Shown here: positions 1,260-3,278 of the stretch, piece after piece
Numbering within the stretch: the stretch's first letter is position 1
How the letters are laid out: the number at the start of each line of letters is the position of its first letter
NCBI GenBank assembly: GCA_031409275.1
Contig: JANNXA010000022.1
Span: 96,001 to 160,000, forward strand
DNA from: Planctomycetota bacterium
Lineage (GTDB): Bacteria; Planctomycetota; B15-G4; SIAN01
DNA: 64,000 nt
Reading direction: 5' to 3'
Notes under the pieces: model-generated
Databases searched by the model: none
The model's input: the letters and a program-made list of their open reading frames with translations, nothing else
What the model was told of the DNA's origin: nothing
Made by a program: the position numbers and the translations under genes

Positions 1260-2054
1260 ATGGCGACCGACTCGTTCAGCGACGTCCGCAGCGAGCTGCA
1301 ATCACGCTCGACACGGACCACCATCGACGAACTCAAGAAGAAGGGCCTCGACCAGGTCCGCGTGATCCGTTCGAGCCAGATCCTCGAGCTGATCGAGAAG
1401 GCGGTCGATCGCGCACTCGCGCGCCGCGGCGTTCCCGAGAATCCGGCCGAGCGCCAGGAACTCCTCACGGATTCGACGGCCATCTTCCGCGACATGCTGC
1501 GCACCGAGATGCAGCAGCAGCAAGGCACAGCTCAGCGCAACTTCGAGGAACTGAAAGCACGGCTCGAGCAGGACGCCGTCGAGATGCAGGCGCTCGAGCA
1601 GCGGTTGTCGCAGCGCGACACTCAGCTCTCCGAGGCGCTCGCGCGGCAGGCCGAACTCGACGCGGAGCTGCGCGTGCTTCGCCAGCGCTCGCAGGCCGGT
1701 TCGCCGCAGGATCTGCTCGAGGAGCTCCGATCGCTGCGCAAGGAGATCGCCCGTCCGCCGGCGCCGGTCGCGATCGCCGCGCCGCCGGTGGCGCCGGCCG
1801 CGAACGGGGCGCTCGAGAAGAGCATCCAGTCGCTCGGGGCCGAGCTCGCCTCGCAGATCGAGCGCATCGGCCGCAAGGTCGGCGTCTCGAGCGCGGCGGA
1901 AGAGTCTCAGGCGGAGCTGTCCGGACTGTTCCAGTCGATCCCAGAGCTCGAGGGCAACCTCGACGCCGTCGAAGCCAAGGAGCGCAAGGCCAGCGACGTC
2001 TCCGATGCGCTGGCTCGCATGAAGTCCCTACGCGGAAGCAAGGGCGGCACTTGA
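1260..2054 (+). CDS. Coiled-coil protein of unknown function, upstream of actin-like gene
   Basis: 264 aa with strong codon bias, a central E/Q/L/R-rich heptad region, a Pro/Ala linker and a short C-terminal helix (VSDALARMKSLRG). GGGGAG upstream. Confidence 0.85.
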   Translation: MATDSFSDVRSELQSRSTRTTIDELKKKGLDQVRVIRSSQILELIEKAVDRALARRGVPENPAERQELLTDSTAIFRDMLRTEMQQQQGTAQRNFEELKARLEQDAVEMQALEQRLSQRDTQLSEALARQAELDAELRVLRQRSQAGSPQDLLEELRSLRKEIARPPAPVAIAAPPVAPAANGALEKSIQSLGAELASQIERIGRKVGVSSAAEESQAELSGLFQSIPELEGNLDAVEAKERKASDVSDALARMKSLRGSKGGT

Positions 2055-2126
2055 GGTCGAGCCCTTTGCATGCCGATCGGAGTGGGTCCTTAGTCCCTTC
2101 AAACACTGACGAGGCAGGAACGCGAC

Positions 2127-3206
2127 ATGGGTAGCGCAGATCAAGGCAACCACGAGAACGGCACGCGTCCGGCGGTCGGCACCACCGGCGTCGCAGAGCG
2201 CCCGTCGAGCGTCGCCAAGATGGCGGGCAAAGGCCTCGACATCGGCACGGCGAACATCCTCGCCGCGGTGCGCGACCAGAAGGGCGGCATCGTCGTCCGC
2301 TGCGAGCGCAACGCCTTCCTCGACATCCAAGGTGACGTGCACAGCCGCTCGATGCTGACTCGGCTGAACGTCCCCTACGTGGTGCACGAGAATTCGCTGA
2401 TCGTGCTCGGCGGTTCCGCCTTCGAGCTCGCCAACGTCTTCGGCCGGCCGACGCGCCGACCGATGAAGGACGGCCTCATCTCCTCGCTGGAGAAGGAGGC
2501 GCTCCCGATGATGCAGATGATCATCAAGAAGGTGCTCGGTGACCCGGCGCAGCCGAACGAGCCGTGCTTCTTCTCCGTGCCGGCCGAGTCGGTCGACAAG
2601 GAGAACAACATCGTCTACCACCAGGGCCTCTTCGCCGGGATGCTCCAGAAGCTGGGCTACAACGCCACGCCGATGAACGAGGGCCACGCGGTGACGTTCG
2701 CCGAGCTCGCAGCCGAGGATTTCACCGGCATCGGCATCAGCTTCGGCGGCGGCATGGTCAACGTCTGCGTCGCCTACAAGACGATCCCGGCGCTCACCTT
2801 CTCGGTGGCGCGCGGCGGCGACTGGATCGACGACAACGCCTCGAAGGTGCTGGGCCTGCCGTCCTCGAAGGTGACGTACATCAAGGAGAGCGGCATGGAC
2901 ATCCGCTCGCCGAAGGGACGCGAGCAGGAAGCGATCGCGATCTACTACCGCAACCTCATCTCCTACACGCTCCAGAACATCCGCAACCGCCTCAACATGG
3001 GGCGTGACCTGCCGAGCTTCACCGATCCGGTCGAGATCGTCTGCGCCGGTGGCACGTCGATGATCCACGGCTTCATCGAGGTGTTCCGCGAAGAGGTGCA
3101 GAAGATCAAGTTCCCGATCGCCATCAAGGGCGTGCGGCTGGGCAAGGAGCCGCTCAACTCCGTCTCGCAGGGCTGCCTCGTCGCCGCCGTCTCGTCGATG
3201 GAATGA
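2127..3206 (+). CDS. Actin-superfamily ATPase, volactin-like (alternative start 2220)
   Basis: Phosphate-1 GLDIGTANI, connect-1 PMNEGHAV, phosphate-2 GISFGGGMVN, adenosine motif VCAGGTS, connect-2 EPLNSVSQG. Also RRPMKDG and FSVARGGDWID blocks. Confidence 0.9.
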   Translation: MGSADQGNHENGTRPAVGTTGVAERPSSVAKMAGKGLDIGTANILAAVRDQKGGIVVRCERNAFLDIQGDVHSRSMLTRLNVPYVVHENSLIVLGGSAFELANVFGRPTRRPMKDGLISSLEKEALPMMQMIIKKVLGDPAQPNEPCFFSVPAESVDKENNIVYHQGLFAGMLQKLGYNATPMNEGHAVTFAELAAEDFTGIGISFGGGMVNVCVAYKTIPALTFSVARGGDWIDDNASKVLGLPSSKVTYIKESGMDIRSPKGREQEAIAIYYRNLISYTLQNIRNRLNMGRDLPSFTDPVEIVCAGGTSMIHGFIEVFREEVQKIKFPIAIKGVRLGKEPLNSVSQGCLVAAVSSME

Positions 3207-3278
3207 GCGAACCGCGGATCGGAGGCGACGCTGCGCGTCACATGACGAGCGGCGTCGCCTCCGCCCGCGTTCCAGCCA

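Follow-up and report, generated by a model that had tools for sequence, protein, structure and literature searches.

What does an actin-like ATPase do in a planctomycete when its gene directly follows that of a coiled-coil protein? To our knowledge, planctomycetes lack FtsZ, and their cell biology is unexplained. Such a gene pair lies near the start of the window, that is, the whole stretch of 64,000 nucleotides analyzed here (contig JANNXA010000022.1, positions 96,001 to 160,000). Both frames were found where the original prediction had placed them, on the same strand and 72 nt apart (Table 1), with GC3 values of 0.87 for the partner and 0.93 for the actin. The pair is flanked by a divergent histidine kinase gene and a convergent carboxypeptidase-regulatory-like gene, in agreement with the predicted absence of an mreC, ftsQ, pilN, or parR context. 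The hairpin behind the actin gene is likely the end of the transcript; a sigma-70 promoter, an Rfam match, or an iteron array was not found at the locus. Among the 44 other window genes, the 22 scanned with Pfam (base 1 to approximately 32,600) proved to be housekeeping and hypothetical genes only, with no magnetosome cluster. Elsewhere, the host genome encodes a true MreB (464.5 bits) and a separate MamK-like actin. Among its named relatives, Planctomycetota MAGs are the closest.

Table 1. Features of the gene pair, in window coordinates
Feature	Position	Strand	Remarks
Partner gene, 264 aa	1260..2054	+	Head, coiled coil, Pro/Ala linker, short helix, conserved tail
Head domain, residues 4-86	1269..1517	+	All-helical, medium-confidence model
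Coiled-coil spacer, approximately residues 89-164	1524..1751	+	Heptad periodicity
Conserved tail, residues 220-259	1917..2036	+	Includes the predicted groove-binding helix (247-258)
Volactin-family (PF25216) actin-like ATPase, 359 aa	2127..3206	+	Short N-terminal extension, approximately 30 aa
Hairpin, 21-nt arms	3220..3263		Directly 3' of the actin stop, between convergent genes

Family and distribution of the actin

The actin matched the Pfam family Volactin (PF25216) with 284.3 bits (E 2e-84, cut-off 35) over profile positions 3-321 of 321, compared with 27.5 bits for MreB_Mbl and 20.5 bits for FtsA. The volactin-type identity proposed in preference to MreB, FtsA, or MamK is thereby borne out, and the sequence blocks quoted in its favor are present in the protein. 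In NCBIfam, the actin remained below every family cut-off, including those of mreB (26 bits, cut-off 365.75), FtsA (12.5, cut-off 175.85), and EutJ (16, cut-off 182), and gave no match to MamK (NF040964) at E ≤ 0.1. The structural model (pLDDT 93.6) shows the expected actin fold, with MreB, MamK, and BeeR as top structural matches at 16-19% identity; a PDB sequence search retrieved no real relative. However, the accompanying claim that all nucleotide motifs are intact was too strong. Phosphate-2 reads GISFGGG, with Ser replacing the Asp of MreB and MamK, and connect-1 reads NEGH and lacks Pro. As far as the aligned sequences tell, both changes are family traits of volactin-type actins, and for Mad28 a Ser in place of the phosphate-2 Asp and a connect-1 of the form xExx are likewise reported (Awal 2023, PMC10653835). 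The phosphate-1, phosphate-2, and adenosine motifs align with those of haloarchaeal members, and identity to five haloarchaeal plasmid records is 41-42%.

In a FastTree phylogeny of 163 sequences and 331 columns, with three haloarchaeal rows other than H. volcanii VolA, a long branch sets the PF25216 family off from MreB and MamK. The query actin groups in a branch that is rich in planctomycete sequences and separate from the three haloarchaeal ones; the deep nodes are weak. Another planctomycete paralogue sits closer than the query to the haloarchaeal sequences. The idea of a simple volactin orthologue was not sustained, as another paralogue is nearer to haloarchaea and Mad28 carries the same motifs. 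Because of the separate branch and the weak deep nodes, we assign the protein, on its sequence, to the volactin family and make orthology to VolA no part of the claim. The family itself is already known, and the query is a further member; one planctomycete protein (P0371) bears the NCBI name 'disk-shape morphogenesis protein volactin'. Several proteins of approximately 700-800 aa (P0173, P0174, P0176, and others) have two stretches that each match the actin and are possibly tandem fusions or split domains.

PF25216 exceeded the cut-off in 111 of 301 Planctomycetota genomes. Among close relatives, it did so in 12 of 41 genomes and in six of the seven others of the host's family, and in none of the 12 genomes of one family inside the host's order. 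On viral contigs, 281 PF25216 stretches were confirmed, and among the best 80 of these, many lie on contigs of 200-530 kb.

The survey yielded further arrangements. Two divergent planctomycete actin subfamilies (L102-L114; L028, L037, and L115-L125) have upstream genes that, judged by eye, share a C-terminal ending particular to each subfamily, and one of the two is present in all 15 genomes of family f8. At four loci (L084, L160, L161, L162), volactin-type actins stand in tandem behind a single partner, the second with a long N-terminal extension. Other actins have no adjacent partner and carry long N-terminal arms, which are acidic in most of them (L087, L092, L100, L096). A magnetosome context for the tandem-actin loci, for G022:C185, and for the Omnitrophica-like L246-L247 was considered and dropped because no mam or mad family occurred among the genes scanned. 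On a Halogeometricum plasmid (L063:10452-12966), a volactin homologue has an SMC-related gene and rdfA approximately 3 kb away; both are Haloferax shape genes by annotation.

The partner protein and its linkage to actins

What is new here is the partner, in which a variable coiled coil connects a conserved head to a conserved tail. The literature searched, with few subscription journals among it, holds no description of a planctomycete volactin, the partner, the shared head, or the phage module; the saltatorellin preprint clustered 14,299 actins, which may include the PF25216 family (bioRxiv 10.1101/817700). Neither Pfam nor NCBIfam has a family for the partner, and no transmembrane segment was found in it. 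Across the phylum, the head measures approximately 80 aa and the tail approximately 40 aa, the coiled coil is very variable in length, and complete partners have between approximately 230 and 1914 residues. In the tail alignment (69 rows), N233 is invariant and L251 is conserved at 97%. Pfam scans of 71 head sequences gave nothing convincing, and a structure search with the head model reached a best Z of 6.9, a value that common helical arrangements also give. The ESM Atlas contained no usable match for the partner (best 0.86) or the head, and PHROGs gave nothing convincing for either the partner or the actin gene. The longest partner (1914 aa; L157:6398-12139) comprises head, long repeat region, and tail and is encoded upstream of a second, divergent volactin-type actin.

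Linkage was evaluated with profiles trained on 20 loci (head) and 35 loci (tail) and applied to 60 further places. Among held-out main-clade actins, the tail was found upstream in 30 of 36 and the head upstream or fused in 28 of 36; for divergent paralogues, upstream tails or heads occurred in none of 22, and the remaining two of the 60 places gave no actin match. The predicted two-gene module is thus conserved. Six of the 36 lacked an adjacent tail gene, among them a head-actin fusion (L093), and for two tail-less actin loci (L100 and L096) the same genome holds an unlinked head gene with a tail match, weak in one case. Including L093, ten head-actin fusions were found (nine of them among 275 database proteins), and the tail matches none of them. 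Synteny, fusions, and the complex prediction discussed below together support the originally proposed filament-plus-adaptor arrangement.

The head is shared with another actin system. When a head profile built from volactin partners only was run against 54,702 six-frame ORFs of the host genome, a single other match below E 0.5 was obtained (E 0.0024), in the ORF that immediately precedes the MamK-like actin. Among distinct MamK-like loci, mostly with 1.5 kb of flank, the head was present upstream in 15 of 32, with E values down to 4e-17. A combined head alignment, whose training rows came from some of the genomes searched, gave 206 matches in 123 of the 301 genomes. Among the 150 of the 206 matches that were listed, 70 precede a PF25216 actin and 47 a MamK-like actin, and the other 33 have neither of the two nearby; 120 of 139 PF25216 places entered this count, the 19 lowest-scoring being left out. 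Tails, on the other hand, are actin-specific: with duplicate loci and training rows included, the volactin tail was found in 65 of 66 volactin-partner ORFs and the MamK-partner tail in none, while the volactin tail was found in none of the 16 MamK partners. The same head with the other tail would tether the MamK-like (saltatorellin-type) actin, and the two actin systems could share an anchor.

The MamK-like gene of the host and its partner gene lie outside the window (L059:581-2517, G000:C55). The MamK-like actin scores 399.6 bits against NF040964; a divergent ParA/BcsQ-like ATPase gene is found upstream, and no magnetosome genes were identified in the surroundings. A saltatorellin identity for the actin of the window was rejected, as the NF040964 score belongs to this separate gene and BLASTP between the two actins gave no significant match (best E 0.33). 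A primer-derived pattern for the saltatorellin gene was found in none of 42 genomes of the host's class.

Outside planctomycetes, the tail was followed in the best 80 of the 281 viral loci, of which 62 differed from one another and 48 came with complete flanks. With a planctomycete-only profile, it was recovered at the C-terminal end (last 10 residues) of an upstream ORF on the same strand in 23 of the 48 loci at P<0.01 and in 16 at P<0.001; three control positions, including downstream and opposite-strand ones, gave no tail matches. The search had to extend to 3.5 kb upstream for this signal to emerge; with the adjacent gene alone, P<0.01 was reached in six of 81 loci, viral and archaeal ones together. 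Aligned with hhalign, the planctomycete and phage tails gave a probability of 83% (E 9e-6), the phage rows being partly chosen by resemblance, and the N-terminal domain of the phage partners differs from the planctomycete head. The head alignment itself lacks a block of sufficient conservation for scanning viral contigs. Genome-wide searches of haloarchaea and one phage were not significant (best E 1.1). Five metagenome loci, retrieved with an alignment to which Omnitrophica proteins contributed, have a tail gene immediately downstream of the actin (37-40 bits). Upstream of the actin at three haloarchaeal loci is a gene for a DUF7139 membrane protein of approximately 300 aa, and its C-terminal half resembled the tail above all 300 shuffles in two of the three proteins, not in the third. 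Because the tail recurs next to this actin in giant phages and, with a weaker signal, in haloarchaea, it is likely the so-far-missing tether of the family.

Some of these loci have features of their own. The phage contigs (L164-L243, L066) combine a volactin-type actin with a partner gene of approximately 200 aa, often separated by an intervening gene whose ending looks ferritin/Dps-like by eye. Close to one phage actin module (L258), there is a tail-sheath gene. At L246-L249 and L255, two volactin-type actins have genes of two-component and chemotaxis-like type around them, and it is the extended copy that the tail gene follows.

Candidate mechanism and its alternatives

For the complex prediction, actin residues 28-359 and partner residues 199-264 were modeled in three runs with our own alignments as input. 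The median score was 0.69, against 0.02 for the best of three controls. Of 157 solved complexes, 116 attained the score mark applied, as did 2 of 215 mismatches. The runs had at least 50% of contacts in common, with a partner pLDDT of 48-61 (48 in one run), so that the fold of the partner itself is uncertain. In the predicted packing, tail helix 247-258 lies on two actin segments (191-199 and 348-356), with further contacts between tail residues 243-244 and actin residues 55-56; conserved L251 and M254 of the tail would contact F191, A195, F199, and V352 of the actin. Since the site follows connect-1 (E185) and runs along connect-2, it would correspond to the groove between subdomains IA and IIA, an assignment made from motifs and not by superposition. 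PMC5173319 places the C-terminal helix of an adjacent gene's product in this very groove for both ParR and arcadin-2. The prediction supports rather than demonstrates tail-actin binding, and likeness to such solved helix-in-groove complexes may have raised its score in part.

Given family membership, gene linkage, the three-part partner, the actin-specific tails, and the head-actin fusions, we consider it somewhat probable that the actin forms dynamic filaments whose groove is gripped by the partner, with the coiled coil setting the spacing and the head selecting the site. In this mechanism, the actin would assemble into dynamic, ATP-dependent filaments, as suggested by Haloferax volactin and Mad28. 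The C-terminal helix of the partner is predicted to dock in the hydrophobic groove of the actin, the coiled coil would act as a dimerizing spacer, and the head would fix the filament end to a cellular site. By the same two precedents, the role in the cell may be shape or internal organization. In H. volcanii, volactin filaments are reported to be dynamic, bound to the membrane by their tips, and involved in shape (PMC10869688). Mad28 is reported to polymerize with ATP-gamma-S (PMC10653835), and in two-hybrid assays the coiled-coil protein Mad25 is reported as the only one bound among the other proteins tested (PMC10653835, PMC12713370, bioRxiv 10.1101/2025.02.24.639979).

The same groove contact could also make the partner a regulator instead of a tether, with the tail sequestering monomers or depolymerizing filaments. 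The predicted site is the groove that, according to PMC5173319, arcadin-2 blocks to depolymerize crenactin, and PMC10869688 describes fast depolymerization of volactin, its authors suspecting further binding factors. However, head-actin fusions devoid of a tail fit attachment better than inhibition, and the variety of N-terminal modules that carry the tail (planctomycete head, DUF7139 membrane domain, phage domain) is the pattern of a localizing adaptor, so that we regard a regulator as unlikely, though the most serious competitor.

We hold it improbable that the pair is a ParM-ParR-like DNA segregation system, with the basic head on DNA and the tail coupling DNA to the filament end. ParR binds DNA through its N-terminal domain, the head is rich in Lys/Arg, and the family also occurs on large phage contigs. 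The layout of ParR is the same, with its C-terminal helix in the ParM groove (PMC5173319). Against this, an iteron or centromere-like array was absent beside the genes in the window and in three relatives, the head has neither a Pfam DNA-binding match nor a clear structural match, and the phage partners carry another N-terminal domain.

A part in an FtsZ-independent division machinery of the host planctomycetes, which the original prediction had entertained, appears slightly less probable still. It would suit the absence of a tubulin/FtsZ match from the host genome (92.9% complete), and in Haloferax the gene beside volA (HVO_2016) is described in PMC12126565 as a homologue of the division anchor CdpA, with a hint of common function. 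On the other side, volactin is reported to assemble independently of the division site (PMC10869688), and the patchy distribution of PF25216 described above, from the whole phylum to the close relatives and the family devoid of it within the host's order, makes a universal FtsZ substitute unlikely. Least probable of all is a tail that binds membrane as an amphipathic helix, the actin being linked via the head or indirectly: the tail helix is amphipathic and basic, and the part found fused to actin is the head rather than the tail, but tail type tracks the actin family while the head is common to both families, and the complex prediction puts the tail on conserved actin residues.

Returning to the tether, a broader and more tentative reading, possible but short of probable in our estimation, is a modular adaptor code in which one head is combined with swappable actin-specific helices, the volactin helix being a universal filament-end binder, in a two-actin cytoskeleton. 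The volactin helix would then recur joined to a membrane domain in haloarchaea and to yet another domain in jumbo phages, the HVO_2016-type neighbor would be the missing tip anchor of volactin, and non-magnetic planctomycetes would hold a two-actin cytoskeleton like that of MamK plus Mad28 in magnetotactic bacteria. PMC10869688 demonstrates no binding partner of volactin and leaves the mode of tip attachment to the membrane open. The tail now offers a defined 40-residue peptide together with a groove and directs attention to the CdpA-like neighbor of volA in the genetically tractable Haloferax. Planctomycetes, in turn, gain an actin system in approximately one-third of the sampled genomes that is tied via the shared head to the saltatorellin-type actin, and an actin-plus-partner module proves common on large phage contigs.

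Comparison with known systems

In ParM-ParR and crenactin-arcadin-2, the C-terminal helix of the neighbor sits in the actin groove (PMC5173319), as predicted here; unlike in those systems, the present pair shows no sequence family match to them, and no centromere-like array was found. Closest by family is volactin (VolA, HVO_2015, H. volcanii; PMC10869688), which belongs to PF25216 as well, and the haloarchaeal members share the motif pattern of the query. The haloarchaeal and query actins nevertheless occupy separate branches of the family tree, and the haloarchaeal neighbor is a DUF7139 membrane protein (HVO_2016, CdpA-like) where the planctomycete partner has a soluble head and a coiled coil. 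Saltatorellin of the 'Saltatorellus' clade is likewise a planctomycete actin distinct from MreB, and a driving role in shape change has been proposed for it (bioRxiv 10.1101/817700). It is MamK-like and thus of another actin family than the query, and the partner of the host's own MamK-like gene has the same head with the other tail. Mad28 of deep-branching magnetotactic bacteria shows the same phosphate-2 and connect-1 changes as the query, a likeness that rests on motifs, and in contrast to Mad28, no magnetosome genes were identified near the query actin. Mad28 has a coiled-coil two-hybrid partner and coexists with a MamK-type actin, and the host genome likewise has a MamK-like actin.
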